In this document: positions 1-57,937 of the stretch, piece by piece
Layout of the letters: the number at the start of each line of letters is the position of its first letter
Position numbering within the stretch: the stretch's first letter is position 1
Source: Promethearchaeota archaeon
GTDB taxonomy: Archaea > Asgardarchaeota > Lokiarchaeia > Sigyniarchaeales > SOKP01
Direction: 5' to 3'
NCBI GenBank assembly: GCA_048937405.1
Contig: JBHLNF010000003.1
Location: 96,001 to 160,000, forward strand
DNA: 64,000 bases
Notes under the pieces: model-generated
Database searches by the model: none
What the model was told of the DNA's origin: nothing
What the model saw: only the letters and a program-made list of their open reading frames with translations
Program-made: the position numbers and the translations under genes

Positions 1-8
1 ATTCCGGG

Positions 9-3000
9 GTGGGTGTCAATGAGGATTATGTGGATAGTGATGCCTCCAATGTGGATGGAGTTTCTGATTTAGGAAATTTAATTAATTTTGATGATATGAA
101 GGCAATAGATAGTAGTTATTCGACATTGACCGAAACATCGGTAGGTGGGAGTAATATAGAGTTTGTTGATTCTACCGAAGTAATCGGTAGTCAATCAATG
201 TCTTTAAGTGTTCCTTCTGTACAAAACGGAGATTTTATGATCACGATTGTGGCTCATTCTGATGATAATCCTACTACAACACTTACACCTCCTTTGGGAT
301 GGACATTGCAACGGGATAAGACAAATATGGGTACAACAGCGGTTTCACCTCCGGTGATTTATGTGTATTACAGAATTGCGAATAATGAACCGTCGTCTTA
401 TATCTGGAGTTGGGATACCGCAGGTGGTGTAGTGGGTGTGTGTCTGGCTTACAGAAATGTTGATACTGTTACAGCAATAGATATTGATTCTTTAAATGCC
501 CAGACGAGTTCTGGAACAGATGTCATATCACCGAGTATAGTGACCAATAATGATGGGGATTGGATAATTTCGATAGAGTGGCATGACGATGATGATGGTG
601 TAACTGGTCCTTCTGATAGCGGGTTCACTGTACGACATGATGTGCAAACCGCAACAGGAGGGAATGGATTGGGGATAGGTGTTGGTGATGAGTATCGAGC
701 TACTGTTGGTTCAACAGGAACGAGAACTTGGACCCTTTCCTCTTCTGAGGAGCGGAGCGGTATTATGCTTTCCATTACTCCAGCTGCGGGTTCAAGCGAA
801 TATCAACTGAACCAGGAGGTGCAATTTGAAGGCATTCCTGATGAGGCGGATCAGATGCCAGTACAGGAGTTATGTATTAAAACGGGTAGCATGGGAGCGG
901 AAGACCTGGCTATGGAATACTGGGACGGGGATTCCTGGGAAGTACTTGCTTCTGATTTAGTAGCCTCTTCGTGGAACAATATCAGCATCGTAGGTTATCT
1001 ATCATCAGCGACCTTTACCGTTCGGTTCAGCGATGGTACCAAAACCTCGGATGGATCAGGAGATGTGTGGAATATCGATGCGGTGTTGATTCATCTTGAG
1101 AATTCTGGTGGTGAAGGAGGAAGTGCTGAATCAGATCTTTTACGATGCACTGATTTTGATTTTTCCAGTATTCCAGATACAGCAACAATAGATGGTATTA
1201 CTGTAGAAATTGATAAGTATACGGATGTATCTGATGCTATTTCAGATTATTCCATACGCCTTAGAAATTCAGGTGGTCCAAAGGGAAGTGATAAAGCCAG
1301 CGCTTCGTATTGGTCTACCTCTGATACTGATACTTACACGGTCTATGGCAGTTCAACTGATCTGTGGGACACTTCATGGATGGTTTCTGAGATTAAAAGC
1401 GCAAATTTTGGGGTAGATATTATAGCAGAAACGGGTACCAGTGCCAGTGCGTTTATTGATCATGTACAGATCAAAATAAATTATATCGAATCTTTTTCAG
1501 GTAGGGAGTGGCAAAATCCGAGTAATGCAAATACTCAGGATGATGTTGACACTATTGTGGTATTTACTACTACTTCTGAAGATACTTCTGATATATTACG
1601 ACTTACAAATTTTGGATTTATAATTTCTGATATCGTAAATATTGTAGGTATCGAAGTGGGATTTGATCGTGAGGCAAATATTACAAATTCTATCACCGAT
1701 GGCTATCTAAAATTATTGAAAGCTGGATCTCCAGTAGGAGATGATAAAGCGACGACAACACCTTGGACGGTTGGAGACGATGATACATATGATATATTTG
1801 GCGCTTCCGATGATCTGTGGGGTACTTCGTGGACATATTCTGATATTAACGATAATGGGTTTGGAGTGGAGTTGTTTGTAAATTATACGGGTTCTTCCAA
1901 TGCTGAGGCTAGAATTGATCATATCCATATTACCGTGTATTATACGGTACCACCATCTTTACAGCAGGATAGTGGTATAATACGTCCATATGGGGATGTT
2001 TCTGCTCAGTGGAATGGATCTGATGTGGGAGATCATTTCAGTTTATTGAATGATATTGTTATAGATCCTACCATTCCAGATATCAACCTCGGATATATTT
2101 TTTCTTCCAGTAGAAGCTCTGGACCGTATATTGTTGATGAATTTACTATGGATACATTGGATATCAATAATGGTAATGTAACGCAAATTACCATAAAAGT
2201 ATACGGCAATGAAACCGATATTGATTCTAGGGTGGATGTGTATTGTGGTGGTAGTTGGTTAGGAGCTAAACAGTTGAATATGGGTTCGATCCCAGGATGG
2301 TATATTTATACTTGGAGCGGATTAAGTTTATCTCAGGCTGATCTTGGAGGGATGCAAGTGAGATTCAACTCGACCGTTCCCACGCCAGGACCAATAGAAT
2401 TTTATGAGGATTTCGATTATGTGCAATTTGGAGATATTTTAGATAGCACCTTTGATACAACCGAATTTACGATATGTGGATGGGTTAATCCAACTGCATT
2501 TTCCGATGTAGAAAGTTCCCATGGTGTGAACAACGTCTTCTTCTCAAAGGAGGGCATCCTGGAATTGGGAGTAAATGAAAGCGGTTATGTAGAGGTCTAT
2601 CTTGATCCGAATAACTTGCCTGACGCAACCGCAACCTACGGTACCTCGGGAGCGGTTCAAATAGGCCAGTGGAATTTTCTTGCGGTACGGTATACCAGAG
2701 GAAATGTTGATGTGATAATTAATGATGTTTGGTACACCTCTGCGGTGGGAGGTACTACGGAGCCGTGGAGCGGAGGGAATCAGCTGGAGAATGGTGGCAC
2801 CTTCATTATCGGTGCAGAACTGACTAATTATACCTGTTTTGCAGGGAATATAGATGATGTGAGAGTGTATAATCGCTCATTAACGTTTAACGAAGTTGAA
2901 GAAATTCGGTTAGGGAATGAACTTAGACTGGAATGCACAGTTTCACGAGAAAATGGTGCGGGTGGATGGGTACCTATTACTTCGGGAGAGCTAATCGATA

Positions 3001-6000
3001 GTTATATTCACTTTGAATGTGAAAAAATGTATGGTGAAATGGTAGCCCTTGAAACAGTTGAGTTTTACATAGCGACATATGAACCTACAATGTTAGAAGA
3101 TCCAGTTCCCGATGAATGGAGTTTGATTAGAAGCTACTCCTATAATCGGGATCATTATTCGTTTGTTGTTCACAGTAGAAATCTACCAGACGAACCCACC
3201 TGGTATTTCATTGTTCGAGTGGTATGTTCAGATCAGAACGTTACGTTTAGTATATATAGTAATTCGTTTGGTATTAGTCATTTCGAAGAGTCTGTAAATT
3301 TTACCTATGTCAATATTGATGGGCGTGTTAATCATAATTCTCAAATTGGCGTGTTACCACTAGAGAGATTTAGCTACCACATAGAATCTATTAATCTATA
3401 TGTAAATTATTCTGGGTCGATTGATAAAGTGAATAACGTGCCTTTCACATACAATGATATGTATTTTAATAATTGGTTACTTGAACTTGATGAATTAACA
3501 CAATGGGTATTAGATGAAGGATTATTACCAGGTGAGTATATCATCAATTTCATTGTTGAAGCAAACTTTACTTTCGGACCAGAATTTAACTATTATATGT
3601 ACAACTATACGATGGGTAATATTACTTTAGATATCGAAAGTCCAGATATTACATTAAATATACAACACAATCCATTTGAAACGACATATACAGATGAAGA
3701 AGATCACTTATTAACAGCGCAGCTAGATTTTATAGATGATCACTTTTCATATGTAAGGCTCGATTACATGTATCATACCTATGAAACTCAGGAAATTTGG
3801 AGGGATTACGGTATAGAATTTACAGGATCGTCCCCTAGTATGAATATTACGTTTGACATACTCAATTTTAGAGATGATAACATTTCTATGAGGTTTATTG
3901 GCTATGACGATTTGGGTAATGAAAAAATTCTAGATGAAGCCAGTTTTTGGTTCCTAAAAGATATGAACAACCACCGTGATTTTGTAGTAAACGGTATTGA
4001 TGAGAATTATTTGTATTCTCTCGATCACAGCGGAAAAATCGATCTTGATGTAACTATATATCCAGTTGATAATGATATCACCAAAGTAACGCTTACAACT
4101 ATGTACGAGAATTTTAAACTCAATAACACAGTTATAGAAAATGATCATATCTACTTCAGCGATACGAGTGTAGGTGAGATAAATATTAAACTAAACAGTA
4201 TCTATTATGAAGTATTTGCAACTGATTTTCTTCAGATTCCAGTCACCATACGATTATATCAGGATGATAATATAATAGCAACAAAACAATTTACCATTAT
4301 CTCAACCACAAAGGTGTTTGAGGATCCCATAGAGATATCTGGAATTGATATCAATTTAGATTATAATGATGAAGTGGTATATGAAGAAAACTTTAATGAG
4401 TCAAATTGGAATTTATACGGAAATAATCCACACACATTTGATGTATCATCATCTACGATTAATAACTATTTAAATAAAAATCACTCTTTAAAAGAGTCAT
4501 TTTATAGTTATACAGGCGAATATAGTTTAGAATCTCCTTCAGGCTCTATTCACTTCAATGAAGACGATAACCACTGGTACGTATTTGATAAGAGCAATAG
4601 TAGATTATATCAATATAATCCCGATTGGACATATACTGGCACATTTTACAATATTGATACATCATCATTTCCCTCATTTGAACCTACTTCTATTTATTAT
4701 GAAGATGATTGGTATGTATCTGGTACAAATTCTGAAGATTATTTATATTCCTATCTCAGAACATCTACATCCAGCAACATACCTTTAAATAATAAGTATG
4801 AAATAGTTGAAACCCCATATGGGATTTATTTTTCGGATTTGAATGGTCGTTTTATTTATAAGACTTCTGATGAGGGAAAAACTTTTACAACGGTAGTAGA
4901 TGAATCACAGAGTGTAACACGTATTAAAGGTCTTTTGTTTGATGAAAATACTAATCGTCTATACTTTTTACTGTCGGATAATATCTATTATGATGAGTAC
5001 TCTCTAAAATCAAAATATATAGAATTAGATAATAATGATAATGTTGTTGAACGATATAATATATATTTTCAAAAAATGTCTTTATCACCCATTGATAATT
5101 TTATTCATCAAAATAGAAAATATGAATTTTATGAATATCAAGAACCCAGTACAGCGGATATAATATTTGAAATAAGAGATCAATCAGGACCTTCGACATG
5201 GTCATACAATATGGGATCTACTATAAATCATTATGGATCATTTCACCATACTTATCCAACTCTCGTAGGAAATAATCTATGGTTCTTGGGTGGTTGGGAC
5301 GATGGAAATGTTGAAATATGGAGGTTCAGTTTAGTCTCCAAGGTTTTTACAAAAATGAAGGATTTAGGAGCCAATACTAAGATCCCTTTAACACCTATTT
5401 ATCAGCTGTATGGAGAACTTGCGTATAATGGACATGATCATCTTTGTTTTATAATTGAAGGTGTATCTGATGACCGACGTTATTATTGGAATTACTCGAT
5501 TTCTACAAATATAGCAATTAAAGGAGCAGAATGTGACGTTTCGTTTATGTTAAATAAATATGCAGATGGATATACGAAAGCTTTTGATCGTGAACAAGGT
5601 ATAATATATTTACTAACTGATAACGGATTAGAAACATTCTATGAAGAGGATTTTCAGGCGCCTATCTCAGTTATAACTGAAAACTATTTCTGGACATTCG
5701 ATAAAAAATTCTACAAGCTTGAATATCCTAACTTATTGAAATTTGATTATGATTGGAGGATATATTCTGGCTCTCATTATGATATTGATGTTAGTAACAA
5801 CGGTCTTAATTCTATGTGTTATCAGAATGGATACTGGTATGTGGCTGATGGTAATTTTATAAAGAAATTTAATGCGGAGTGGGTATATCAAACAGAATAT
5901 TTTGTAGGTTCTGAAGATACACCGATATCTCTTAAGTTTAATGAAGATGATAGTTACTGGTATATGCTGGGTGAATATAGTTCAACGGTGTATAGATATG

Positions 6001-9000
6001 ATTCTAACTGGGTATATACAGAAACATCATATAATATAAATCAAGACGCAGATCCAAGAGGGATTTATTATCATAATGGATACTGGTGGATGTGCGGTAA
6101 CGAACGTGACAAAATCTACAAATACGATAATCTTTTTACGGTTTCTAAAATATATCAGGGAAATGGAATTTTATACTGCCAAACGGGTGCTACTGAAACA
6201 ATATCATTAAGAAGTAATAGTCTTGATCTTGATCTAATACCTGGAGATATTATTGAAATTACATATAACACCACTTCGACACACGAGATAATGTTTAATT
6301 TGTTAAGCTCTGGAATACAACAAAAAGGATTTAAATTGATACAAGAGGGGAATAAAAATTTCGGTACTAAGACTGTAGGATTTATTCTTGATAATTTTGA
6401 TGATTTTTATGATAATATAGATCAACTCGAATTTACTGGAACATTTGACGATACTCACAATTTAGTAATAGATCACATAAAGATATACCGCATTCCTCCG
6501 AATATTTTTATGAATGTGTCTTGTGGGAATTCGTATAACAACTCTTATAATTTACCATTTATAGTAAATAACATCAATCCCTATGTTGAATTTTACAATT
6601 CCGAGAATGAATTAGTGCAAACAGTAAGGTTATTCTCAAATGTGAGTGATATGAGAGTACAACTTTATTCCAATGAATACTTATACCTATACACAAGTAC
6701 AAAACTACCAGCAAACACGCATTTATGGTGGGAAATTGGTAGCGGAGAATTGTATCTTGTAGATGCTGCTGATCAAACTCAATTGTATGTATCTACCGAT
6801 GAAGGAATGACCTGGATTCAGGTAGATATTGATCCTTCTGACACTTCTGGAGATGCTAAATCACGAGATCACAACATCCAATCAGCGTGGCATGACAACG
6901 TAAGTCAGGTTATATGGTTTGTTGATTGTGATGATGGAACGGCAGACAATTTCGATGTGTGGAAACTTGATTACAGTACGAATAAAACGCACCCAACTAT
7001 AACAGAAATAGGAACTTCTAGTGGTGCTGATGCAGGTAGTGTGATGTTTACGGATATTTTTGTATATAGTTCAGATACATATGTTGTAAATTATGAGGAG
7101 AGATCAGGCACTAAAGTCGTTGTCGTTTGGGATGTGGATACTGCACCATTTACTCAGGAGGGTATACACTATCCAGGCAGTCCAGCGACACATGTTGAAC
7201 TGTCTTTTGTTACACTTATAGGTGATGATGTCTATCTTACTGAGGAACTTGACACAGGACAACCATCACCCATGGATTCAATTCGCATACTGCGTTTTGA
7301 TCTTTTTACCTCATCATGGGGCGCTCCAGATTATCTAAGTGGGTATGATATGCTAGAAAGGGGTATCGTCTATGATGGTAATGATACTATATATTTTATG
7401 GCTGCTAACATTGCTGATGGCAAGAATTATGTATGTTCTTATTCTATTTCAACCTTTACAATTACAGTGGGACAAGAAAATAACATTTCATTTATGTTAA
7501 ACCGAAATGCGGATGGATATGGAAAAGCATTTCATACAAATGGCATAATATATCAAATTACTGAAAACGATATTGAGTTGTTTAATACTAGATCTTATGA
7601 TGATGATGTAATCGCTATTACAGAAGGATATATTATGACCGCAAACGGTAAGTTATACATCTTTGAAAACATTACAATTACGCGGAACAGGTTTAAGGTA
7701 CCATTTCCAGATTTAAATCCTGGAGAGGAATTGGCGGATATAAGAGTTGTTACTATTAGCGGTACCTCATATGAATTTTATTATTTTATAGATGCAACTG
7801 ATCAGGAAATTTACATCAATTTACTAACAGATGAAAACATTGATGGTACATATAATGAGATATATATACGGTACGGATTTACTAACACATCTATCGGATT
7901 TCATCAGTTTTATGGATATTACGACTTAAAATCAACTCTTTTTATCCCAGAAGGGAATTATACATTAAAAGGCTACTTTCATGATATTTCGGGTACAGTT
8001 TCTAAATTTTTATCAAATACAACACATGTAATTGATTTTGAAAGTCCTCGGGTGTTCAAGCAATTTGAAGAAAGTGTAATAATTAATAATCTAAAAGATG
8101 GATTTATTTCATTCATTATTGAAGATTTTAGCGGTATCGACGAGTGCTTTTTCCTTGATCAAATTTTTGATGGGTATTGGGATGTTCAAGGTAATCTTTA
8201 TACCTATTACTTTACTGATCCCCATGCGACTATATTTTTATCTGAATTTTCAACCCCTTCTTTGTGGAATTTCAGCGTCGCCTATGGGAAATTGGACTAT
8301 CATAATCTTGAACATATTGATAATATCAATACAACAATTTATGGTGAGTATACCACATATGACACTCCAGAACAACCCAGCGACGTCATTGTAATAGATG
8401 GAATTATTACAGATTATGGAAATCTCGAATTTATTGATAATAACGAAACAACAATTGATGCCGAGTATAGCGGTAGTTCATATGACATTAATGCAGAAAT
8501 ATTAATCGATGGGATACCGCCAAATATAAATGACTGGAGGTCCTACCTCAGATTTAATCATAGTTCTACTGCAACTATTGATTTTGATATATGGGATTAT
8601 ACATTATCCGATTGGCAAGATATAAGCGCAGGCCATTATCCAGCAACCTACAGTTTTGAAAACGATCAAGCTGGGCAAAATCCTAGTGAATGGGATATAG
8701 ATGAAACAGGAGGGACTGTCGACGTTCTCGCTACTTTTCAAAGACATGACAAAGTTGTAAAAATTACAGATAGTAGCGGTTCTGATTATCCACGATTTTA
8801 TCAAAGTATCGATTATTTATCATATGGAAAGGTGGAATTTTGGATTTGTGCAGGTGAGACTGATAGAATGCATCGTTTTGCGATTGTTGATTATATGGAT
8901 GAAGGACTTGAGTTTTATATGAGAAATAATGGGCAATTTTCTTATTATGATGTTAATGGGTATCATGATATAGGCGCATATATTACGAATCAATGGTATC

Positions 9001-12000
9001 ATATCAAAATAGAATTCGGTCTTACAGACTGGCATCTGTGGATAGATGGTGTTTCTAAGGATCAAGGGAATGGATATGGATATTATGGATATCGTATACC
9101 ATTTACTATTATGACTTTTGAAACAAATTCAGGGGAAACTGGCGCTGATTTTTATATTGATGCAGTAGGAACTTCTTGGTATTCAAAGAAATATAATATC
9201 GGGGACAATAAATACGCAACTCAATTATTATCTACTGATTTAATTAACAATCGCGTTGTAAAGGTACGGTATATAGCCACTGATTCAACCGATTTTGTAC
9301 TAGACATTGATCAACTCCGAGTAGATTACTATGATGATAAGTATAAAATAGAAGGAGAAATTGAATGGTCAGTAGATGATCCAATTTTATATTCAATCGA
9401 TTCGCTACGATTTAGTCAGTTTGTTGAAAACAGACTTGATAATTTTGATATATGGAATTATACATTAGGTAATTGGCAGGATATTTCAAGTGAAGACAGT
9501 CCATTTACACTTTCATCTGATTTTTATGACAGTAGCAATATTATAAAGGTTCGTTACATAGCATCTTCTGATACCACTTTTGGCTTAGATTTAGATCAGC
9601 TCAGAACTGATTACACAACTACAATACCAGTTGAAGGATTTGTATCCACATTCCATTTATTTGTTAAGGATACCGTGGGTAATAATAATACAATTGGTAT
9701 TTCACTCGCATTTGATGATGTGCCTCCTGCGATTGAAGATTTGTACATACATACCAAATATTGGAATGAATTACTGAGAATTGATATAAAGATCAAAGAT
9801 ACTTCTGATTATGATATTTCATTGATGTTAAAAAACATCATTAACAAAGCAACCTTTACTCGGTTGAAATACACCATCACAAATGTAGGACAAGATGAAT
9901 GGCAGATTTTGTTAGATACATCTCAACTGCCGAATGGCTTGTACGATATTTATCTCACCATAACAGACATAGCGGGAAATTCACTTATACATGTTATTGA
10001 AGACATATATTTGGATAACAGTCCCGTAGAATTTTTGTATCTTGAAGATAAAGTAATAATCGACGACATTTCGATGTATAGTTTTGTAATTGATGATGTA
10101 TTATATTTCAATGATAGAAAAGAAATAGCTATTTCTGCAATTGACATTACCTACGACGGTTTTAGCTGGAGTTTAATTGATCCAGCGCTGGGTATTCAAC
10201 AAGGGGTTCATAATATTACAATGTATATAACAAACGAGCTTGCTTATCACCCCGTTGTGTTATCAACCGAATTGAATTATGATACACTTTCATATGTAAT
10301 AATCGGCTATGGTACCTATCCAAATATTATATATGATACACAAGCCATCAAGGAAATCAAGCGGTTGAAAATTAATGATGTAGTTATAGAAAATAACGGG
10401 TTTTCGACCTCATTTACTGGAGGTTCATATGTATTGCATATTGATCCTCATTATACATATTTACTATCCCCATTAAATACAATTGAAGCCGAGTTCTATG
10501 AACGCATTGAAGACGGCATTTATTTTGAGTTTGATAGTATTAGTATGGAATGGGTTTTGAAATCAAGTGGAAAAGATTTCTTTAATATCTCTGAGTATCT
10601 GTCACTTTCTGAAGGAGAAGAATTTTACTTTTGGTTCGAATTGGAAGATGGAATGGGTGTTGCCAAAAATGGTTCGGTATCATATAATCCGTGGTGGAGA
10701 TACACAGGGATTAATTATCCAGTTTTTCCAGTTAACGAAACATCTCCAAAAAGCATATACTACCAAAATGGATATTGGTATGTGCTTGGAGATTATAACA
10801 ATAAAGTATTTAAGTACTATTCTAATTGGATACCTACTGGTGAGTCATATTCCATTGCTTCTGAGGATAACCTACCACAATCGATCTATTACTATGATGG
10901 ATATTGGTGGGTATTGGGTCAATTTAACAAAACTGTGTTTAAGTACAATCCAGACTGGACTTATACTAACTTAAACTACACGATAGATGAAGATGCCTGG
11001 CCAACTTCAATTTTTTATCATAACGGATATTGGTGGGTGCTCGGAAATGCTCAATCAGAAGTATTTAAATATAACTCTGATTGGACATATTCTGGAGAAT
11101 CATTTTTACTCGAAACAGAGGGAGATCTAAGTGACATCAATTTTGAGGGAGGATATTGGTATGTCTGTTGCAATGATAAAAGAAGGATATATAAGTACGC
11201 AGTTGATTGGACATATTTGGGAGAATCTTTTTCAGTAAACGCGAATCCGACCGCTATTCATTATGCAAATGACTACTGGTGGGTTCTGGGAGAACAGTCA
11301 AGAATATACAAGTATATGTGGCAGACTTCGAATGAGACAAGGGGAAATATCTTTATCACCCATACCTATAAAGGAATTTATGATAATTCAATTGAACGGA
11401 TAGGTGATGGGAACTTATTTGAATGGAACCTCGGTACTACGTCTAATGGTACAGGAGTTGTGATTTTCGGTACAGATGAGTACAAGGATAGCTTGATCCA
11501 GATCGATCCGTCATCAGTGCTTCCTGATGTGAACGATGATATGGATATCGCGAGAGTAATGATTTATGGAACTGAAAATCCTGAGTATTACATTGTGGAT
11601 ACTGCGTGGTGGAATCTTGATGAAGGTACAGGAAACATTGCTGAAGACTCTATTAATGGAGATCACAATGGTATAATTTATGGGACGACCTGGGATGATG
11701 GATTAAACGGTAAAGCACTGTATTTTGATGGTATAAACGATTATGTTTCAACAAATCTTGATATGACCTCTATTTGGACTGCTGGGGATCCGATTCACAT
11801 ATCTGTTTGGTTCAAAACTACCGCAACGAGTGGTTATATCATCGCGGGAACTCCTGAAGGAGGTCCAGATATAGCAGTTCAAATGTATAATGGACAAGTT
11901 AGAGTTCGATTGTACGGCGATACAGTAGCGGCATCTGATAATGAAGAATATAATGATAATGAATGGCATCTTGTCGATTTTGGCTGTAATGAAACTGATT

Positions 12001-42000: not shown

Positions 42001-45000
42001 AATATGTTGAACAGAACATCTGGAGATATACAGAGCTAGAAATGTTTGAGTCAGACGTAGATCCCAGTGATGATGTGTACAATCCAACATTTACTGAAAC
42101 ACCGATATTTTACAATGATGGCGGTGATAAATGGTTAAAGTATCTGGCGTTGTATGACGGTGCCGCTACATATTATGCGGGATTACCAGAAGGACAAGAT
42201 CAAGATCAATATCAATTACACTGGTCTCAACAATACAGTAATTTCACCTGGAATCCATCATTTGATAAATTTAAAGAGATATTTGGCATGCAGTATGAAT
42301 TACCTATGAGTATTGAACCAAATAGCTCTTTATATCTTGCCTACTGTACAAACACATCGTGGATGGAACCAATATATTTGGATTATAGTAATATAGACCT
42401 GAATTCTATTGCAGTAGTGTATGAGGGCGATACCTTTTCATTAGAGAATCGGTATTATTATTCTGAATTAGACAGAAATCTTACGGAACGACTGTACTAT
42501 GATTATGAAGTAGATCAGTTTTACAGCGATTCATTTACTGTATACAATACAGTGTCAACATATACCCATGAGTTCGATCTTGGCAATTTTACCCTTGAAA
42601 ATGATTTCATTAATGTGAGTGTGTATAGTATAAAAGGAATATATGCAAATTTCACTGATGTTACAATAGAAAATGATACAATCAACTATGAGGTGTACTT
42701 TGATAAGGCTGCAAACAATATTACCATTATAGACAAAATATCTGGAGATGGGGTCTTAAACCAGTTTGATCTAATTACCGTCATATTAAACTTTTCATAT
42801 GGACCTATTTCTACAAGCTCAAGCATCGAACTTTCGCACATGTTTAACAATTCTTATTTATCAGATCCTACGGCATCATTTTATGATTTACTTTCAATAT
42901 CATTTGAATATGTTGATGATCTTGAATTCGTGTTATTTAATGAGGATTACAGAACTATTACTACCTCAAATACTTTGTTTACTTCGATTGATTTTACAAG
43001 AAGTAGTGAGTTGGGTATAGATAAAAAACTCAATGGGTATGATACAAGCGTGTTCCTGAACTTTAAGATATTTTATGATCCATATAATGTGATTTATGAA
43101 GCGGATTTAGACGCTGATGGGAACATAGATTATCTACAAGAAATAGATATAAACAAAGATGGAATCACGGATATTAGAAAATTCGGAATCCAAGATGGGG
43201 AGTATCCTGAAGACATCATATGGCATACTATCATTCAAAATTATAAGACGCATGAATCATATGTTGATAAGCAAAAACAATCGAAAGCAACGAAATGGTT
43301 CGATCTAAATGATGATAGTTATTCTGAAATAGACTGGGGAGATCCAGGTATCTGGGCAATGATTTCACTAGCGATAGCTGGAATAGCCTTGTCTGGAGGG
43401 GCAACAGCTGCACTTGTTATCCCACCGATTGCAGGGGAGATCATGGTTTCAAGAGTAGATTACTGGGCAAAGAAATCAATAACACACGAAATGACTCAGC
43501 ACTATGATGTAAATACTGTATATCAAAGTGTAATAGTAGATGAAAATAAAGATGGGTATGCAGATACGGAAGTTACTTACGAACATATTGATACAGTAGT
43601 AAATTACGAATCAATAGACATTGAAACAACAATCATTGCTGCTAAACCTTATGGTTGGACAACGTATCTCTTGGATTATGTAGAGAGAAGTTTTAAGGAA
43701 TTTTTTGTAGGAGAAATAGAAGATAATGTGTTTAATGAAGAATTAACAGAAGAAATATTGAGTGATAAATCACTTGCAGTGCAGAAGTACGGAAGCACAG
43801 GAGAAACCTTGTTTAATACATTTGGAAAGGTTTCAAAAAACACAACTGTACTATACCGAGAAGAACGTATACGAGAAACAATTACTATTACGGATTGGGA
43901 GCAAGGAAAAATTAAAGAAACAAGGATTTACACAAACGATTTTGATGACCACATTACAAATTACGAAACATTTACGATAAAAGATCTCTACTCAGGGAAC
44001 ACACAGGTGGTAGAACTTGAGACTCACAGAATTCCAGATGAAGTGTCTATTGAAAAGAAGCATATTGATGATATTACTTGGGAAAATGATAAAATACCAG
44101 AGCAGTTCGATACAAAGATCACGATATTAGAAGACGGAACAACAGAAAGGAAAAACATCAATGAGAAACAACTCACGATCATTATTCCAAACAGGTTCAG
44201 TCTGTATAACGATATCTACAAGGGTAAATATAATAAGGATTTAGTTAAAAATGACACATTTACAATAACTGGAGTGGTTATTAAACCTATCGATGGGCAG
44301 GTGTATTACACTTCTGATATAGATCTGTATAAGGCTGGAATGGCCCAAACACAAGGATTCTATCTATATTACGATAGCGATGAAAACGGTTTTTATGAAA
44401 CCGTGTATGTACTCGATGAAGATCCGACGAATGATGGATCATATATAGTAATAGCAATCGGTTATAATTATGACGGAAGCCACGAATTTTCACCATATAA
44501 TCAGAAAACCGTTCGTACCTATGTAGAAAAAGATGATGAATTGGCAAGAAAGCCTTCCTTCAAAATAGGGTTCAGAAGGTACTCTTTCTCAAGGATTATG
44601 AGAGATGACAATCTATTTTTGAGTGATAATGATGGATTAGAAGCAAAAGATATGATATTTGAAATTTACCGATTGACATCATATAAAGGTTCAAATCCAG
44701 AGTTCTTTTATGAAGTCAAACAACGAGAGTACAGTCGAACAACAAACATTTTCGATAAATCATACTGGTCTGATGTAGCTGAACAGGTATTTATGTCAAC
44801 TGCAGCTGGCACTATCTCGGTGGTTGTTGGGGCAGCGGTGTTCGGATGGATAACGGGTGCTACATTAGGTTTTGGCGTTGCAGCTGGTAAGGTGGCACAA
44901 GAATTAGCTTCAATGCTTACCTACTTTGCGGTATATTCGATAATGAGTAAATATTTCATGGATGTCAAAGAATGGAAGAGCAGGCATCAAGAACGTGCCG

Positions 45001-48000
45001 TTACATTCTATCTTGAGGGATCTGAAATCAATAAACCGAAGTATCTAAATGACCGTACGAAATACGATGATATAGACGAGGATAGTCAAGCGGCTGCGGT
45101 AAAAGGTCATCCAGGCGGATACTATACATTAGTACGGGGTGGTCAGTTAGGATCAGAGTATCTTGCAGAAGCTGTAGTATCACCGAAAAATTCACGAAGA
45201 ACTAATGAAGGGCTAATTAATTACTATACCTATGGAGCTTGGACAAATGATCCATTTGTCTATGTTGGATTGAACTACGATGAGCAAAACTTAGATTATC
45301 TGCTACTTACTAGTGAATTATACTCCTACAATGATGAAGAGTATTACTCATATCGTGTTGGCCCAGGATTTGTAAGCATTCAGGATGGAAAAGAATATAA
45401 TGAGTATAAATACAATACTCTCGGATATTTAGAAAAAGCAATTGCAGAAGAAACAAATGGAGCGTTAAATGCAATTCTTCCTACGTGTGTAGGCGGAAGA
45501 CCAGAATATCTATTCATTGATAAAAATTCTGATTTGTATCAACTTGTGCTTCCGCAATCTCATTTATATCAATCCCTTGTTGTGAATCCTAATGTCTATG
45601 ATAATAATAATTTTGCGAACGGCATTCTTGATGTGGATATTGACCCGTCTGGCATAAAAGGAATAAATCCTTATGAAATGACTGTTATCGAACAACTCTT
45701 ATATAGTGCGAAGATACCGTTACATAACTTTAATTATGAAATAGTTAGTACCGTATTATATATACGGGATAAGAATGGTAATCCTAAAGCTGATGTAGAA
45801 CTAACCCAAGAAGTTGATTATTTGATTGATGAAGGTTCTCTTTATCTTTTAGCTCCCATTTACGAACTTCTTGCGCGAGATTCCAAGTTTGAAGAGTATA
45901 TGAATGCAAGAGCATCTGGATATTACTTCTCAATAAGTATTGAATTCAAACGGATAATACCAGATGATTCAGATGAAGATCACAAGATAGCATTGCAACA
46001 GGCAACATCCTATATTATCATGGAGTATTTCAACCAGTATGAATTTGCAACAACCACAGCTCGAATGACTGCAGAACTTGGATATACAGTACGTCTCACT
46101 GAAGTATCAACCGCCTTATCAGTAGTTGCAATGTATCTGAGTAAAGGATTAACCAAAGGTTTAGAAGAAAAATTCCTTGCAAAATCAACACTAACGGCCT
46201 CACAAACAGTGTCTAAGGCACTAACAGTAAAGAATCTATTACTTACCATGTTAAAAGAATCATTATCAGAAGTAATAGAAGAAACGATCTGGGATGCATA
46301 TATTGAACAATGGGTTAAAAATTACATTGAAGAAACGGGTGGAACAGCACAAATGGAATTCTGGTTATCTTCTATTTTAACCTCATTGAGGGAAACAGCG
46401 TTCGGTGCTGGTGATATATACAGGGGAATCCGTCAGGAGGTCCAATTACAGACCCAAATAAAGGCGTTTTCTCAACTTGATCCAACTCTACAGAATTTCA
46501 TGAGCGAGTTACGTCTACAAAATCCTGGTATCAGTGATAAACAATTGCGTATACAATATAGAGCTGATTTTGCTCAACTCCTCGCTGAAGAACAGCAAAA
46601 ACAAACCCAAAATAACAATCAAAAAGCACAAAATAAGAGAAGTTATAAAGAAGTCTTACGTAAAATTCCAACAGCACTGTTAAAAGGTATAATGGGTGCG
46701 ATGTTTATTTTCAACCTTGATGCATATGTAAAAACTTTCATCGGAGTTCTTGGCACTTCGGTGACATTAACCCCGATAAAAAATTACATGACTAAACAGC
46801 ATCAAAAACGAATAAATCCAGGATTATCTCTTGATGAGAAGCATCCAGTTAATGATATTGATCTAAATAAGCCAGCATCTCTTATCTTCGACCTAGAAGG
46901 TCGTCAAAAATTAATGACAGATAGAGATCTTGTCCTTCTTTCCTATTCGGCAAAGTTGCTTGATCCAAAAGCAATGGTCGATAGACAATTCGATAAAAGT
47001 TATAATACACTACAACTGGAATATAAACCAACTGCACAAACAGTCACTAGTAATACATACCAATTAGAAAAAGCAAGACAAGGATTACTAATTCAAAAGA
47101 AATTATATGATACAGGTAAAACTGGAAGAATCGAAGAAACGACTCTAGATGTTGAAGAGGCTTATCGTGTATCACAACAAGTTGTTGATGTAGAAGTTAT
47201 AATTGATGATGTTCAAATGAATGTATTTACGCCACAATTATACTCAAGAGAAGCAATATATTTATATTTATGGAGTCAAACAAGAGATCCTACTATAGTC
47301 TCTCTTCCTAGAAGGGCCAGTATTGAAGCCTTAAAACAAAATATTATCCGTAAGTTTAATCTTAATTTAGCTACCAGGACAGATTCACTCGATTCAATAA
47401 CCGTCTCCAATGATTTTGTAGTAGTTGATTTTGACATTAATCGAGTATATGATATAGATAATTTTGCGACTGTGGGGGAAATAATTGATGCCCATCCAAA
47501 TTTCAGAATTATGAGGACTATAAATCTTGAACCAAATACCCCTATTACAACTGTACGCGATTTTAGAGAAATTGAATATTATTCTTCAACACAAAGAAGT
47601 GGTACATATTTAAGATTTGGAGAAATTAATCCAGATGATAACACACTTTCCCCTATAGAATCATTACCAGAAACCCAAGCGGGAAGAAGAACTGCAGACG
47701 TACTTGAACATAGAGGTGGAGGAAATGAATTTATAAGACGCTTAATTAGAAAGATCACTGGCGGTATAAGAGGAATTTTTAAAGGTACTGAAACAACCCA
47801 GAGAGTTCTTAATCAACCCGAACTACCTCTATTCGTAACTGAATTACAACGGGCGTCTGATGATATCCTGTATTTTAACCCTAATACCCCAAATACTGAT
47901 CGTCAAGTTACTATTCGACAACAACTCGATTTTGTAAGAGATTTCATTAGAGATGAACTTGTTATAGTATTACGAGAAAGATTAGAGCTACTTGGAGTTG

Positions 48001-51000
48001 CATCTGAGGTACACTCGAATGATATGATTGAAAAAGTCACAGAAATTATACTTCAGATATATGATGAATTTTACATACATCAATACGAAGCACATCAACA
48101 ACTTCTTGGAAGTGATCAGAGAAATCTTAACCTACTTGATAAAGAAGTACGGTTAAATTGGGAACGTGTAATACAGAATAACTTACTAGCTTATATAATT
48201 GACTACTTCCCAGCAGAAAATGGTGTTTTAATCAGGAATTTTAATTCAAGAGATCAAAATTTGCACAGGAATATTTTTGTATCGGTTTTGGATAAATTAG
48301 AAGATATTAATGATAGGAAGGAAATCATTGATCGACGACGTTTATTTTGTATGTCAGTTATAGAGAGTATGCTGATTTCAAACGATATTGAAAGAATAAA
48401 TAACGATCCAGCTGGAGCAGAAATAACTCGGTTCCTTGGACCTACGGCTAGAGGGAGGAATAGAGCGTTTTCTGAGCTTTTTTTCGCTTTATTTGGAAAA
48501 TTCAGTTCAGATACCGAGATCAACACAGGTGCTTTACAGGAAACTCATGATTTCATGTATTTGTTACCAAAAATTATTCTAGGGTTGTTTTTCGAACATG
48601 TGGGAGGAAATATACAAGATATTAACTATGAATATTCCTATAACAAATTTAGTTATGCTGATGCAACCTCTATTTTCAACTTAGTTAGGGAATTATTTAA
48701 CGGAGGTAGTCTTCTTCATGCTGAAGGAGATATACGAGCGGAAGATGTGTTTTCAGATCATATGTTTACATTGATTAATTCACACTTTAAACATCAGATT
48801 ATTAATATAATCTCTAAGAATCTTCAAGATGGAGGTCATGCTAGAACTCGAATGGATCTCATTGAAAGTGACTTATGGAAGGCTCTTAATTCAATTAAAA
48901 ATCTCGCTGGGACAGATAAATTAGAAATGGATAAAATATTAGCAAAAATAGTAATTGATATGCAGGCACTTAGAGGAATGGACAGTACAGGGAGAGAGAA
49001 TACTGAATTCAGTACAGTAGAATCCCTTTTAAGACACAGATTTAATGATGTTTCTGCTAAATCTATAATCAGATCAACAGAGTGGAGAAATCAAATTAAT
49101 ACTAATAGTAAGTCAGATATTTCTGAGATATATTCACAAAGATGGATACATTCACGAATATTAGGAATCGCTAGTAATATTATATATGAGGGTGGGATAT
49201 TTCATGCCGACCGTTATGCTGCTATATATGATCTGCTAACCAGCACTCGAGAAATTATAAGTCAAACTGGCACTCTTAATACTAATCCATGGCGAGAAAG
49301 ACGTGGAGGTACCTTGTATAGAGTTAGACCATTGGGAACCTGGACACCAGGCACAATTTATCAAAATAATCAAATTGAAGTACTTATTGAAATATCACCA
49401 ACCAACAAATTCGAAATAACTATCAACTTCCTTGAAGATGGTGGGAATGTTGGGAAAAATCTTGAACGTGGGGATACTTTCCTACAACAATCTGGGTATT
49501 GGATTTCATCTTGTCTTAATTTCGTTGAAAATATATTGGTTACTCCAACTAGTATTGCTAATTATCTTAGATTATTAAGAAATGATTTTGAAGATCGTTT
49601 AGGGACATCATATCTTCATTGGGATGAAACTGGGGAATATACAACAGGATTAAATCTGGTTGCTGGGTGGAATAGTGGAGTGTTAATTGAGGGTAATTTG
49701 AATATAAACAATATACCTAATAGTATAGATACAAGTAATGCTGAATTTGATCCCATTAGTGGTAATCTTATTGGATCTTACATTCCAATGTCCCGAGAAT
49801 TAGATGACAATACTATCCAATATGGCTTATTGCGTGTAGAACAGGATAGTGATGGAGTCTACTGGCATATTCATCCCTCAAATACTCTTGTGGGTACAGA
49901 TTGGGCTCCAATTTTGATAGAGAGAGAAGATGGATATATTCCGTTTTTTGTTCAGGTTGAATTAAATGTAAGAGAAAGAAAAGTCACTTATTTAGGATTT
50001 AGTAACAATCGATTAGATAGTTCTGGTTTCTCTTTTGATAGCGATTGGTTCATGTCAACAGATCCAGAAATACAAGCGGCATTAGAAGAAGCTATGTCAA
50101 GTGGAGGGTTTACAGAATATACATTATATTTTTCATGGCATGGAAATGAAATAACTGGATGGTCGATACATACGAATATAGAGAATATGTATTTAGCTTA
50201 TGGTCATTATAGAGACTCTTATAATAGATTTAAAAATGTAAGAAGAAGTAGGCAAGATCCCTATCAGGATCCCGGATTATTTGAGCTTAAAAGATTAATT
50301 GAGTATGAAAGATATCTACGATATGGCGAAATAGCTCGAGTAGGTGTACAAGCGGAAATAAATAAGGATGGAACTATATATTTTACTGATTCAACACTCC
50401 AAAAGGAAAACACGAAGTTGATATTTAAAATGGCAGAAGATCAGTTAATCACAGCCACAACAACAGAGATTTCCGAAATAAGGAACTATTTCTCATTGAT
50501 AAATGCTTATTATTTTGGAGCTTCTGATCCACCAATAAATATTATACATGCAGATGACGTTGACATTTATTTAAGCGCACTTGAACAATCAGCAAAAAAG
50601 ATCCTTGGTGATACAAAAACAGCGGAATTGATGAATTCCATATTTTTCAATGAAATGAGGGACGGTCAATTACGATTTAACAACAAACAGATGCTGAAGA
50701 ATTGGGCAAAGGGTATGTTGCTGTTATTACAAAACTATTATAATGATCCAAATAGAGAAGTAATTCTACGTCTTGAAGGATTACTTAACCACTTTGAATT
50801 GAATAGTTTAACATTCACGGATAGTAATGAACTCTTTCAAGAGTCAGATAAAAACACTTTTCAAAAATTACAAACATTGCTTTGGACAATATTTGGACCA
50901 TATACTTACTTAAAGATGCTAACAGGTGGAATAACATTTAAAGATGGCAAAACACGATATTGGAATTTACCATTTTATGATTTTCTGCTTGCGATTAATC

Positions 51001-52304: not shown

Positions 52305-52364
52305 ATTTTGTAATATTTTTAAATTAATAAATTATTAAATAGAGATTGATATAGTAAAAAAGAA

Positions 52365-53222: not shown

Positions 53223-53224
53223 AC

Positions 53225-53266
53225 ACTTTTTATAAATTTTTATTTTATGTATTTTTATGTATTTTT
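53225..53266 (+). terminator. Probable archaeal oligo-T terminator
   Basis: Several T-tracts, including a repeated TTTTATGTAT unit, immediately after the stop codon. Confidence 0.45.
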
Positions 53267-53413
53267 AAATATTCTTGATTACTATTCAAACAAAAATTGC
53301 AATAATTAAAATTCTTTATAATCAGTCTAATGAGTGATTAAATCATAACGACAATAAACTATCCTCCCAAGAAAATATTAGAAAAGAAGGATTATGTATA
53401 CATTATACTATGG

Positions 53414-54289
53414 ATGTTGTACAATAATGAAGGATGTAGATGGTTAGATTTTCGTCAAGAACCGCTTGAAATTCCTACAGTTAGTTTATCTGAACATTTA
53501 AATAAGTTAACACGTAAAGGATTAGTAGAAAAATATACTAAAGGGTATTATAAGATAACACATAAAGGGAAAGAACGTTTTAATGAAGAGAAATTTGATT
53601 TAAATTATTATAATGAATATTATAATTATAGACTTTTGATGACCAAGGTTTTAAGTCCTGATCGAATCTTTGATATTGAGAGTAATGGAGATTCTAAGAC
53701 TGAAAAGATATTAAAATTTTTAGTATTAGGAGAAGCGGGAGTAGGAGTAAGAACCCTATTAAACTCAATATATCTTAAACTTGGTTTCACAGATTATGAT
53801 TATGATCATTATAATTCTTCAGTACATACAGAAATACCAAAAGATTGGGAAGGTTATGATATCGATATTCATGGTTTTGAATTTGAATTTCATTATACGG
53901 AGTATTTAGAAATCAATGAAGATATATACTTACTTGATTATTGGGATTGTGAGAAGGATTATCGTTTTCATAAAATATTTCAGATGTTTAAAGAGAAGGT
54001 TCTTGTGTTGTTTATTTTTGATTTATCACGACCAGGAACTTTTGAATATCATATAAAGTACAATTCATGTCCTTGGTGGAATTTAAGTAAGCCCTCGATT
54101 TTATTAGTTGGAAACAAACTAGACTTAATCAAGGACACAACTACAATTGATCGGAAAAAATATAAGGATTTTGTTGAAAAAGAGGGTTTGAGGAAGTATA
54201 TAGAAATATCAATGAACAATTTTAATGGGTTAATTGAAGAAATATCTAAATTAATTCAAGAGAAAATAGGTAAATCCTTTAAATTTTAG
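53414..54289 (+). CDS. Winged-helix + Rab-like small GTPase fusion with degenerate P-loop; true start probably ~53342-53354 (non-AUG)
   Basis: wHTH pattern SLSEHLNKLTRKGLVEK...YKITHKG; GTPase motifs KFLVLGEAGVGVRT, YWDC, FIFDLS, LVGNKLD, EISM; the frame is open upstream to TAA 53339 and reads INYPPKKILEKKDYVYIILWML. Confidence 0.82.
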   Translation: MLYNNEGCRWLDFRQEPLEIPTVSLSEHLNKLTRKGLVEKYTKGYYKITHKGKERFNEEKFDLNYYNEYYNYRLLMTKVLSPDRIFDIESNGDSKTEKILKFLVLGEAGVGVRTLLNSIYLKLGFTDYDYDHYNSSVHTEIPKDWEGYDIDIHGFEFEFHYTEYLEINEDIYLLDYWDCEKDYRFHKIFQMFKEKVLVLFIFDLSRPGTFEYHIKYNSCPWWNLSKPSILLVGNKLDLIKDTTTIDRKKYKDFVEKEGLRKYIEISMNNFNGLIEEISKLIQEKIGKSFKF

Positions 54290-56013: not shown

Positions 56014-56031
56014 AGGAGGAATGAAAATATA

Positions 56032-57867: not shown

Positions 57868-57937
57868 CTTTAACTTTTTAAATATAAATTTAGCAAATAA
57901 AAAATAAAAAAAAAACAGAAAATAGAGGTTTTATACA

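Follow-up and report, generated by a model that had tools for sequence, protein, structure and literature searches.

The window analysed here, a stretch of 64,000 nt from a Lokiarchaeia-type Asgard archaeon, carries the 3′ part of the gene for a giant surface protein whose C-terminal end is completely free of N-glycosylation sequons (N-x-S/T, x not P), and the variable tails of its family are almost equally devoid of them. These sequon-free tails are a new finding of the present analysis. Judging from sequence, we tentatively suggest, at close to an even chance, that the giant may be a contact-dependent cargo- or toxin-type system with conserved membrane modules, an exchangeable tail and an Arf-mimicking pseudo-GTPase as a partner.

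To our knowledge, almost nothing is known about the surface molecules of Asgard archaea, and the giant family provides a concrete candidate for contact-dependent interaction, either antagonistic or cooperative. It offers three testable handles: the total avoidance of N-glycosylation sites, which predicts the parts leaving the cytoplasm unglycosylated; a new membrane module of about 1,355 profile positions; and a two-gene cassette of a rare cysteine-peptidase-like domain and a GTPase-fold protein without the catalytic Lys.

Extent and integrity of the giant gene

The giant ORF (G000:C13:86445-148304, + strand) starts 9.6 kb upstream of the window and is open throughout its 61.9 kb. The part inside the window (3-52304) encodes 17,433 aa in a single stop-free frame, which bears out the original prediction of a carrier of more than 17,000 aa; the complete protein is larger still, 20,619 aa. 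This length places it in the rare class of archaeal proteins exceeding 10,000 aa. Such proteins are commoner in Asgard than in other archaea (Wu et al. 2022, PMC8813620; West-Roberts et al. 2023, bioRxiv 10.1101/2023.11.21.568195), and the giants of Heimdallarchaeum belong to mobile elements called 'Aloposons' (PMC8813620). The parts read of both papers contain no mention of the module, of variable tails without sequons or of the cassette of peptidase and pseudo-GTPase.

Along the protein, a basic N-terminus is followed by a polytopic TM block, an ectodomain of ~16,950 aa, the membrane module (~1,355 positions) and a tail of ~1,860 aa (Table 1). The N-terminus, located outside the window, comprises a basic region of ~450 aa and ~6-7 strongly hydrophobic TM helices. 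The TM block is conserved in giants of other genomes (G003, G014, G061 and G205), and the N-terminal anchor and the module recur together in giants of 11,000-13,000 aa from the same Promethearchaeia family. Since the N-terminus is a polytopic anchor and not a secretion signal, a released toxin appears unlikely.

Table 1. Positions of the features described, numbered from the first nucleotide of the window.
Feature	Position	Strand	Remarks
Giant gene, 3′ 52.3 kb	1..52304	+	the window is preceded by 3,186 aa with the basic N-terminus, the polytopic TM block and the beginning of the ectodomain
Ectodomain, in-window part	3..43346	+	acidic, Tyr/Trp-rich, sequon-rich; LamG, DUF2341 and CBM-like modules
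Conserved C-terminal membrane module	42645..46709	+	alignment A2, 1,355 profile positions
Hydrophobic segment TM1	43347..43433	+	Gly/Ala-rich, KD19 1.9
Sequon-free zone	44253..52301	+	zero N-x(not P)-S/T over the last 2,683 aa
Hydrophobic hairpin region	44787..44957	+	~57 aa, Gly/Ala-rich, possibly two helices
Module core	45237..46709	+	alignment A3; start of the short 'core + tail' forms
Variable tail	46710..52301	+	~1,860 aa, cytoplasm-like composition, no Pfam match
Tail sub-domain with few distant relatives	50394..51068	+	P0005 (787 aa), P0007, 814-aa ORF in G047
Terminal candidate clan-CA (papain/C39-like) cysteine peptidase domain	51510..52301	+	motif-based
Arf-like pseudo-GTPase, 285 aa	52365..53222	+	PF00025; N-terminal extension of ~120 aa
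Ras-like pseudo-GTPase, 291 aa	53414..54289	+	N-terminal winged-helix piece

Based on Pfam, the 17,433 in-window aa contain extracellular-type modules only, namely Laminin_G_3 (1e-39 and 4e-46), Laminin_G_2, DUF2341 (1e-20) and Sialidase-like_CBM. All of them lie within the first ~14,400 aa, where adhesin-like extracellular modules had been predicted. The last 2,433 aa gave no match in Pfam and none in a sequence search of the PDB. Past the hydrophobic region, the K+R content rises from ~5.5% to ~10% and the net charge changes from -10 to -3, in agreement with the cytoplasmic-type tail proposed earlier. An exact-sequence cluster look-up of neighbouring proteins returned no names.

The source genome is a MAG in 29 contigs, its contamination is 5.7%, and the tail is unique, all of which would suit a mis-joined tail or a decaying pseudogene whose ORF is not expressed as one protein. 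However, contigs from an independent study span the junctions of module and tail (46277-47020) and of stop codon and GTPase gene (52242-52962) with zero differences, and an assembly artefact was therefore rejected. The open frame, the relatives of the same architecture and the sequon-free stretch, which runs unbroken from the module into the tail and stops at the stop codon, also stand against a chimera or pseudogene, and we regard this explanation as extremely improbable.

Conserved membrane module and variable tails

The module leads from Ca-type loops through TM1, an inter-TM region of 450 aa, the hydrophobic hairpin and a beta-rich core to long amphipathic/hydrophobic helices; the weaker hydrophobic helices of the core are at 46092-46169 and 46674-46769. 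The Ca-loops and Gly/Ala-rich hydrophobic helices of the original prediction were thus located, and the DxDxDG-type loops are invariant across the family alignment. The module is present in 24 of the 251 genomes of the phylum, 22 of which (the giant's own genome included) belong to the window's own family. It shares 32-37% identity with the giants of the same genus. The shared block corresponds to aa ~17,405-18,810 of the full protein (32-35% identity), beyond which the tails diverge; within the last 2,433 aa, matches to relatives are confined to the first ~580 residues. The relatives carry an 'NPNPK' junction motif, which is degenerate in the window's giant. An AlphaFold2 model of the module core (18-row alignment) had a pLDDT of 58 and gave no match to the PDB by Foldseek at E<=0.001. 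Rotavirus VP4 and phi29 gp9, which were language-model neighbours of the core (0.79-0.84, low recognition), were rejected since shuffled sequences often reach such values. The module is thus a membrane domain with several helices that belongs to no known family.

The tails of the family are 600-1,900 aa long and mosaic or mutually unrelated. A conserved region followed by a variable C-terminus had been expected, and the homologues do not share an invariant C-terminus; instead, co-oriented small genes recur downstream of their mosaic tails. Searched from nt 46884 onwards (1,806 aa), the tail had no paralogue in its own genome and a single weak match of 148 aa in the 53 other genomes of the genus (G047, E 1e-6); bar this match, the tail of the window's giant is unique among the 54 genus genomes. 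The sub-domain relative P0005 (Table 1) sits on a short contig. No Pfam family of any kind was found in the tail of the window's giant at E<=5, and hence no known toxin, pre-toxin or trafficking domain. For the relatives, eight of the ten last-450-aa ends were without a Pfam match at E<=0.1, and sub-threshold matches were to PRTase-CE (5.8e-5, one tail end) and Peptidase_S24 (6e-4, the short form in G012).

At G205:C185, the giant is followed by small-ORF paralogues and then, 4.8 kb downstream, by a 1,283-aa 5′-truncated copy beginning inside the module. Its homology extends back to the preceding stop codon, and it is the only clear orphan-like case, the remaining short forms being alone on their contigs.

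Avoidance of N-glycosylation sites in the tails

The last 2,683 aa of the giant are the longest sequon-free run of the genome, and the top two such runs belong to the giant and its paralogue. For the last 2,445 aa, 21.6 +/- 4.2 sequons were expected and the minimum among 1,000 shuffles was 10, against zero observed. The tails of 19 family proteins (16,899 aa) contained one sequon, at the third-last residue, compared with 124.2 expected; the family members being related, this pooled count overstates the number of independent events. In a pool of seven proteins, N-x-T and N-x-S were the most depleted of the 400 a-x-b patterns (z -5.3 and -4.9; next -2.9), and all leftover N-x-S/T cases were N-P-S/T, the one form that is not glycosylated.

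The whole ectodomain of the giant contains 203 sequons vs 177 expected. In the same genome, the observed/expected ratio was 0.93 for likely cytoplasmic ORFs and 1.36 for TM- or signal-bearing ORFs, and the tails of 14 other sequon-rich surface proteins had 17 sequons vs 13.6 expected. The first co-oriented downstream ORFs had 32 vs 37.5. It is worth adding that the genome encodes STT3/AglB. Since the tails are depleted while cytoplasmic ORFs, other surface tails and downstream genes are normal, the tails appear to meet the oligosaccharyltransferase and to be selected to stay unglycosylated. The near-complete absence of sequons is the pattern to be expected of an exported or translocated cargo.

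We propose the following scheme for the delivery of the tail. In each giant, a conserved polytopic anchor at the N-terminus precedes a huge ectodomain open to glycosylation, and the conserved C-terminal module, taken to insert into membranes, leads to a variable tail that would be an exchangeable 'cargo'. The tail would exit the cytoplasm, probably unfolded, would therefore meet AglB/STT3 and would have to remain glycan-free. The weakly hydrophobic Gly/Ala-rich helices of the module may then bring the tail into a membrane or through it, plausibly the membrane of a contacted cell, following the logic of polymorphic-toxin-like or effector delivery.

The alternative named in the original prediction was a membrane-anchored receptor with a cytoplasmic protease. 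In that case, the giant would serve in adhesion or recognition, its cytoplasmic tail signalling via an adjacent cognate partner (the Arf-like pseudo-GTPase, an LRR protein or a small adaptor) and its terminal peptidase cutting cytoplasmic substrates or processing the tail itself. The location of the tail depends on the parity of the membrane passes of the module, an odd or even number deciding between outside and inside, and is not derivable from sequence; one plausible count (TM1 + hairpin + two core helices = 5) would leave the tail inside. Arf-like and LRR proteins, to which the partners belong, are typical of cytoplasmic signalling in Asgard archaea and come from widely expanded families, which lends the receptor some probability. 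The cytoplasm-like composition of the tail fits it as well, as do the Arf-like proteins without signal peptide and a free-standing peptidase homologue without signal peptide or TM; the tail composition and the free homologue also count against cargo. However, a receptor leaves unexplained why N-x-S/T would be selected against while N-P-S/T is spared, and the near-complete lack of sequons in the tail argues against it, because cytoplasmic ORFs, downstream partners and the tails of the 14 other surface proteins are not depleted. Moreover, in the giant family it is the tail that varies and the membrane module that is conserved. Altogether, the receptor seems to us rather doubtful.

It is also conceivable that the tail is displayed on the surface and never delivered, as an external enzyme or interaction platform (e.g., an extracellular protease) kept glycan-free for packing or activity. 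Alternatively, it could be transiently mis-exposed in biogenesis, the module helices acting as weak stop-transfer signals and glycosylation trapping the wrong topology. Sequon avoidance requires exposure to the oligosaccharyltransferase and does not by itself imply delivery to another cell, and the module helices are only marginally hydrophobic. On the other hand, avoidance across ~17,000 aa of unrelated tails points to a generic rather than a fold-specific constraint, and the ectodomain of the same protein tolerates its 203 sequons. An extracellular function is also hard to reconcile with partner genes whose sequon content is normal and whose products carry no export signal. We consider surface display or mis-exposure quite unlikely.

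Terminal domain, partner genes and likeness to known systems

Under the delivery scheme, the cargo of the window's member would end in a probable papain/C39-like Cys-His-Asp peptidase. The terminal domain carries the motifs GQQD..C (Cys 51582-51584), H-A-L-T-I (His 52140-52142) and L-I-G-D-S-D (Asp 52200-52208), and 186 aa separate the Cys from the His. Its order, with Gln ahead of Cys and then Cys...His...Asn/Asp, is that of clan CA and is kept among homologues: GQ(Q/E)D...C was found in the window's giant, P0006 and L135, the His and D-S-D are invariant in four sequences, and both alignment A1 and L135 retain the Cys, His and Asp. No Pfam peptidase matched the domain; the nearest Pfam entry was DUF3335 (19.5 bits vs a cut-off of 25, on the fragment P0008). 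The best PDB profile matches were papain-family cathepsins aligned at the His...Asn motif, with non-significant E values of 0.4-1.3, and the language-model neighbours were the Mac-1 and Peptidase_C39_2 clusters (0.93). The single-sequence AlphaFold2 model was unusable (pLDDT 40).

The domain is rare, with three relatives among 1.84 billion representative proteins. A profile search of 5.8 billion protein clusters found only P0006 and P0008 as relatives, its other matches stemming from the glyoxalase part of P0008. A tblastn search of plasmids, a set expected to include the Shigella virulence plasmids, gave no match. Of the terminal Cys-His-Asp peptidase predicted from the sequence, the conserved Cys, His and Asp hold, while a significant match to a peptidase family is missing; we suggest that the domain is a probable papain/C39-like cysteine protease.

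A small co-oriented gene for a degenerate GTPase had been proposed 60 bp downstream, and the Arf-like gene indeed starts 60 nt past the stop of the giant in the same orientation (PF00025, 47.9 bits, cut-off 22.3). In its P-loop, GGGGAGVSS (52770-52796), Lys is replaced by Val and the intact G1 GxxxxGK[ST] is absent; the G3 site is FFFTPY instead of DxxGQ, and G4 NKQD and G5 FSAI are retained. Its relatives have Val, Thr and Thr at the position of the P-loop Lys. At L030/L031, the gene order is a free-standing 404-aa peptidase homologue, a 158-aa ORF and a 265-aa Arf-like gene, whose product is 34% identical to the window's over its full length (E 2e-33) and shows the same Lys to Val change. 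At L135, an Arf-like gene (Lys to Thr) follows 68 nt past the peptidase stop. Thus, the terminal domain is followed by a full-length Arf-like relative at all three loci with a readable flank. In G065, a relative of the pseudo-GTPase occurs without a nearby peptidase. Co-folding of the terminal domain with the Arf-like protein (0.00, 0.36 and 0.00 in three runs) was evidence neither way.

In the delivery scheme, the Arf-like partner, with its guanine-binding motifs kept and the Lys of its P-loop lost, would remain in the cytoplasm of the producer as a fold-mimicking inhibitor (immunity or decoy) of the protease, with Arf-type GTPases as the real targets. The complete proposal, an Asgard-own contact-dependent delivery in which a self-inserting module passes exchangeable glycan-free cargo, including an Arf-directed protease held in check at home by the Arf-mimicking pseudo-GTPase, is in itself unlikely; should it hold, sequon avoidance would be a general sequence signature of translocated archaeal cargo. 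Antagonism between proteases and Arf GTPases has so far been described for effectors that bacteria direct at eukaryotic hosts, and an Arf-like immunity factor or decoy would give it a prokaryotic precedent. The proposed action would parallel that of IpaJ (Shigella/Salmonella), a C39-type Cys-His-Asp protease specific for ARF/ARL GTPases (PMC9728880). The suggested likeness lies in the Cys-His-Asp order in a papain/C39-like setting and in the tie to Arf-family proteins, whereas the Asgard Arf-like protein, a partner encoded in the genome itself, has a dead P-loop and is not a host substrate.

The predicted layout of a polymorphic toxin was recovered in part. Like CdiA-CT/CdiI and Rhs-CT/RhsI (Zhang et al. 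2012, Biol Direct 7:18; cited in PMC6393860), the giant family has a large surface carrier, a conserved region before a sharply variable C-terminus, a small co-oriented gene directly downstream that partly tracks the tail type, arrays of paralogous small ORFs, and one orphan-like 5′-truncated copy downstream of a main gene. Unlike those systems, the Asgard giant lacks known pre-toxin and toxin domains and has a polytopic membrane anchor as its N-terminus, its tails are long mosaics rather than single domains of ~200 aa, and its partners include GTPase-fold and LRR proteins. Pfam analysis of the 17,433 in-window aa found no TPS domain, FHA repeats, VENN junction or CdiB transporter, no RHS/YD repeats, and no RTX repeats or Peptidase_C80. 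With MARTX and large clostridial toxins, the giant has in common an enormous length, helices of marginal hydrophobicity that precede an effector region of cytoplasmic type, a candidate cysteine peptidase domain and a possible functional connection to small GTPases. It has no sequence or fold match to them, however, its candidate peptidase forms the very end of the protein, and the producer itself encodes the GTPase-fold protein.

At 14 of the 19 loci, the stop of the giant is followed within ~90 nt by a co-oriented ORF. Three families of downstream ORFs recur, namely a family of ~120-150 aa, LRR proteins and a family of ~155 aa. The tail and the following gene were predicted to vary together, and this holds for the peptidase/Arf-like pair at its three readable loci; the other small genes track the tail type in part only. 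This partial co-variation counts against the delivery scheme, as do the absence of known toxin, pre-toxin or trafficking domains and a peptidase call made from motifs and sub-threshold matches.

The Ras-like gene further downstream (PF00071, 31.7 bits, cut-off 21.6) encodes a degenerate P-loop (GEAGVGVRT) and G3 site (WDCEKD), with NKLD retained. Neither an orthologue of this gene (53414-54289) nor linkage to the giant family was found, and the membership of this second pseudo-GTPase in the system is thus not supported. Its product is a mosaic, the winged-helix N-terminus being 56-67% identical to the N-termini of mostly ~640-aa proteins and the GTPase half ~37-47% identical.

Membrane module, variable tails and adjacent genes

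The open frame originally read over window positions 3-52304 was borne out: it contains no stop codon and extends upstream to C13:86445, giving a protein of 20,619 aa (in what follows, the full-protein residue is the window-frame residue plus 3,186). Contigs from an independent study were identical across 46277-47020 and 52242-52962, the two junctions that matter, and the whole 10 kb examined was spanned by one contig from the source sample. In the genome itself (4.47 Mb, 29 contigs; the window is G000:C13:96001-160000), there are genes for two Snf7 homologues and for a single STT3/AglB oligosaccharyltransferase. Judged by isocitrate dehydrogenase, it is closest to MAGs labelled Promethearchaeota or Promethearchaeia, which are Asgard archaea of the Lokiarchaeia type. 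The parts of the protein are listed in the table; no Pfam family was found in the tail, with matches up to E<=5 included.

Coordinates of the parts of the giant protein, its neighbours and related loci (aa, full-protein residues)
Feature	Position	Length	Remark
Giant gene	C13:86445-148304	20,619 aa	
Basic, coiled-coil-like N-terminus		~450 aa	K+R 19%
Strongly hydrophobic helices	aa 449-679		about six to seven
Acidic ectodomain		~16,950 aa	K+R ~4-6%, D+E ~15.5%; Pfam modules LamG_3, LamG_2, DUF2341, sialidase-like CBM
Gly/Ala-rich hydrophobic segment	aa 17,634-17,663		
Region between segment and hairpin		450 aa	DxDxDG-type loops
Hydrophobic hairpin	aa 18,114-18,172		
Post-hairpin part			beta-rich region, then long helices, two weakly hydrophobic
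Tail		~1,860 aa	cytoplasm-like composition
Candidate peptidase domain	window 51510-52301		
Arf-like pseudo-GTPase gene	window 52365-53222		
Ras-like gene	window 53414-54289		
Winged-helix piece of Ras-like gene	window 53414-53590	~58 aa	
ATP-citrate lyase (two subunit genes), isocitrate dehydrogenase	window 54712-59131		consecutive
PadR gene	window 59509-60054		
MacB/FtsX-type permease gene	after PadR, past window end	at least 1,222 aa	
Module-bearing paralogue, contig C28	G000:C28:270451-278751 (-); L035 8451-16724	2,758 aa	
LamG protein, contig C11	G000:C11:26411-30784 (-); L036 4408-8757	1,449 aa	
Tail end of one relative	G221:C27; L044 4952-6301		
Free peptidase homologue P0006	L030 10001-11215	404 aa	
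Pseudo-GTPase relative with the 217-aa ORF before it, genome G065	G065:C74; L032 10013-11720	289 aa (relative)	
Pseudo-GTPase remnant, genome G069	G069:C22; L033 10393-10518	42 aa	

When the last 2,433 aa were compared with 40 relatives, only the first ~580 residues matched; the matching ORFs were two of 11,803 and 12,745 aa and several shorter ones. The block common to the fetched loci comprises ~1,400 aa (aa ~17,405-18,810; 32-35% identity by BLAST), beyond which the tails diverge. Of 251 genomes drawn from across the phylum, 24 had a match to a profile of this membrane module (A2, 1,355 positions), and 22 of the 24, our own included, are from the family to which the window belongs. The module-bearing giants also have the N-terminal transmembrane block in common; therefore, both membrane-associated ends are conserved, and the ectodomain and the tail vary.

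The family also includes short forms, which begin at the module core (profile position ~860) and run on into a tail. In genome G205 (contig C185), a giant is followed 4.8 kb downstream by a short-form copy, with paralogous small ORFs in between, and the homology of this copy extends to the preceding stop codon; in this it resembles the orphan cassettes of bacterial cdi/rhs loci. The tails are mosaics, in which ~120-150 aa after the module are common to many relatives and further blocks are found in subsets. Within single genomes, the similarity of paralogues breaks off suddenly: identity between G022_C5 and G022_C37 is 50% over ~320 aa, beyond which they are unrelated, and between G098_C9 and G098_C91 it is 52% over 157 aa, beyond which they diverge. 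The tail of the window's protein matched none of the other family tails and had no paralogue in its own genome; a search of 53 further genomes from the genus gave a single weak match.

Most relatives keep a junction motif, '...KKPS.(L/I)D...NPNPK...KFNEI', in the ~150 aa that follow the module, just ahead of the tail divergence (read in L011, L013, L014, L016 and L037-L041). The motif, which is degenerate in the window's protein, may mark a site of processing or of recombination. One relative's tail end (G221) has a sub-threshold match to PRTase-CE (PF24390; E 5.8e-5, 23.5 bits vs a cut-off of 27).

A co-oriented ORF follows within ~90 nt of the stop codon in 14 of 19 loci. Recurrent partners are a ~120-150-aa family and LRR proteins (four loci each) and a family of ~155 aa, found at two loci and present twice at one of them. 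The tail and the next gene vary together only in part: homologous tails are often followed by the same family (for example, G003_C7 and G098_C91; G012_C47 and G205_C185b), and the correspondence is not strict. In the C28 paralogue, a 220-aa ORF without a Pfam family lies 52 nt downstream, followed by an M29 peptidase gene.

Sequon depletion and the proposed fate of the tail

The window's protein has 210 sequons (N-x(not P)-S/T), none of them beyond residue 17,936. For the last 2,445 aa, 21.6 +/- 4.2 were expected, and the minimum among 1,000 shuffles was 10; the reverse motif S/T-x-N occurred as often as expected. In the post-module regions of 19 module-bearing proteins (16,899 aa), a single sequon was found vs 124.2 expected, and it occupies the third-last residue of one protein. 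Inside the module, depletion was strong in the post-hairpin linker (0 vs 8.7 expected) and the core helices (4 vs 25.3), and counts were mildly low in the inter-TM region (35 vs 48.7) and the core beta part (26 vs 40).

In a pool of seven proteins, no other of the 400 a-x-b patterns was as depleted as N-x-T (1 vs 30.3 expected) and N-x-S (7 vs 36.6), and all eight remaining occurrences were N-P-S/T, the only variant not used by oligosaccharyltransferases. This specificity (both S and T, a spacing of two, Pro spared) is that of an oligosaccharyltransferase. Controls showed no such loss: in the same genome, observed/expected ratios were 0.93 for likely cytoplasmic ORFs and 1.36 for ORFs with TM segments or signals, and 14 other sequon-rich surface proteins had 17 sequons in their C-terminal tails vs 13.6 expected. 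At the 19 loci, the co-oriented ORFs that come first downstream had 32 vs 37.5. The two longest sequon-free runs of the genome belong to the window's protein and its C28 paralogue (a C-terminal run of 1,660 aa). The third longest is in the C11 LamG protein, whose first 1,266 aa have no sequon vs 12.8 expected; it is flanked by a TIR-domain protein and a SIR2-TPR protein in what looks like a defence-type neighbourhood.

The active site of AglB/STT3 faces outward, and from the specificity we infer that the tails are exposed to this enzyme, probably as an unfolded chain given the almost complete loss of sites, and that they are under selection to remain glycan-free; the topology as such does not follow from the sequence. 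The giants associate with the membrane at two places and have conserved ends; their tails are exchangeable and free of sequons, and partner genes lie next to them. We suggest the following scheme. The marginally hydrophobic module helices would bring the tail out of the producer's cytoplasm, and the tail may then enter or cross the membrane of a contacted cell. Passage would be obstructed by glycans, which would explain why sequons are purged from the helices and the tail and not from the parts that would stay outside. The partner protein would remain cytoplasmic and neutralise or regulate the cargo. As a whole, this scheme has, in our judgement, slightly less than an even chance of being correct. 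It is rather unlikely that the protein is a receptor with its tail inside the cell and the partner as a signalling adaptor; this would account for the tail composition and the kinds of partner and leaves the sequon purge unexplained. Display of the tail without delivery, or its transient exposure, seems improbable to us.

The exported-tail scheme follows the logic of polymorphic toxin systems, and our results partly support the original reading of the giant as a candidate for such a system; however, Pfam showed none of the defining domains of CdiA, Rhs and MARTX in the 17,433 aa encoded within the window. Two earlier accounts note giant genes in Asgard archaea (PMC8813620; bioRxiv 10.1101/2023.11.21.568195). 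In the literature searched on Asgard/Lokiarchaeota polymorphic toxins and archaeal sequon depletion, we did not find the family, the sequon-free tails or the cassette described. The sequon-free tails are new here.

Terminal domain and GTPase-fold genes

The terminal domain contains GQQD...C, followed 186 aa further by H-A-L-T-I and then by L-I-G-D-S-D. When 1.84 billion representative proteins were searched exhaustively by HMMER with the last 1,200 aa, five matches had E<=0.001, and three of the five fell on this domain. The domain is complete in P0006, Cys motif included; P0004 and P0008 have the His-Asp half only, and on the P0004 contig the Cys motif is also present, in a shifted frame. P0008 has a sub-threshold match to DUF3335 ('Peptidase_C39 like'). 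Papain-family cathepsins made up three of the best six, non-significant PDB profile matches, two of the three aligned at the catalytic His...Asn motif, and the language-model neighbours were Mac-1 and Peptidase_C39_2 clusters. Together, these non-significant similarities are suggestive of a candidate clan-CA peptidase. P0006 carries an extra C-terminal ~90 aa (residues ~315-401) matching the extreme C-termini of the tails G205_C185a (E 8e-6) and G205_C185b (8e-4); therefore, free proteins and giant tails seem to share one pool of end domains.

The product of the next gene scored above the cut-off of the Arf model (47.9 bits). It has GGGGAGVSS, with Val for Lys, as its P-loop and FFFTPY in the G3 region; NKQD and SAI are unchanged, and an N-terminal extension of ~120 aa is present. 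Its best relative in the genus is only 35% identical, over part of the length. The best full-length relative (265 aa, 34% identity, E 2e-33), likewise with Lys to Val, is the second gene past P0006 on a contig from JGI metagenomes that occurs in two samples; a third relative, with Lys to Thr, begins 68 nt past the peptidase stop codon on the P0004 contig. The peptidase-like domain is thus followed by a pseudo-GTPase in all three loci with a readable flank, whether it forms the end of the 20,619-aa giant or a 404-aa protein, the latter encoded behind a secreted, sequon-rich beta-helix protein. The G065 relative (P-loop GSMNVGTTT, Lys to Thr) has no peptidase domain nearby; the ORF directly 5' of it (217 aa) lacks a Pfam family and ends in a long coiled coil. 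The G069 remnant, which shares 76% identity with the C-terminal end of the Arf-like protein and has no intact gene around it, is probably a decayed orthologue.

For the window's member of the family, the partner may be a decoy with a GTPase fold, and the protease that it decoys would be directed against Arf-type GTPases. IpaJ offers a precedent for such a protease: it has Cys-His-Asp, is of the C39 type and acts specifically on ARF/ARL GTPases (PMC9728880).

The second, Ras-like gene was also assigned to the system at first, a connection that our results do not support. It has a degenerate P-loop, and no orthologue of it was found. Many genomes of the family encode proteins, mostly of ~640-660 aa, whose N-termini share 56-67% identity with its winged-helix piece; therefore, the gene looks like a recent mosaic. 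The genes farther 3', from ATP-citrate lyase to the permease, are unrelated housekeeping genes.
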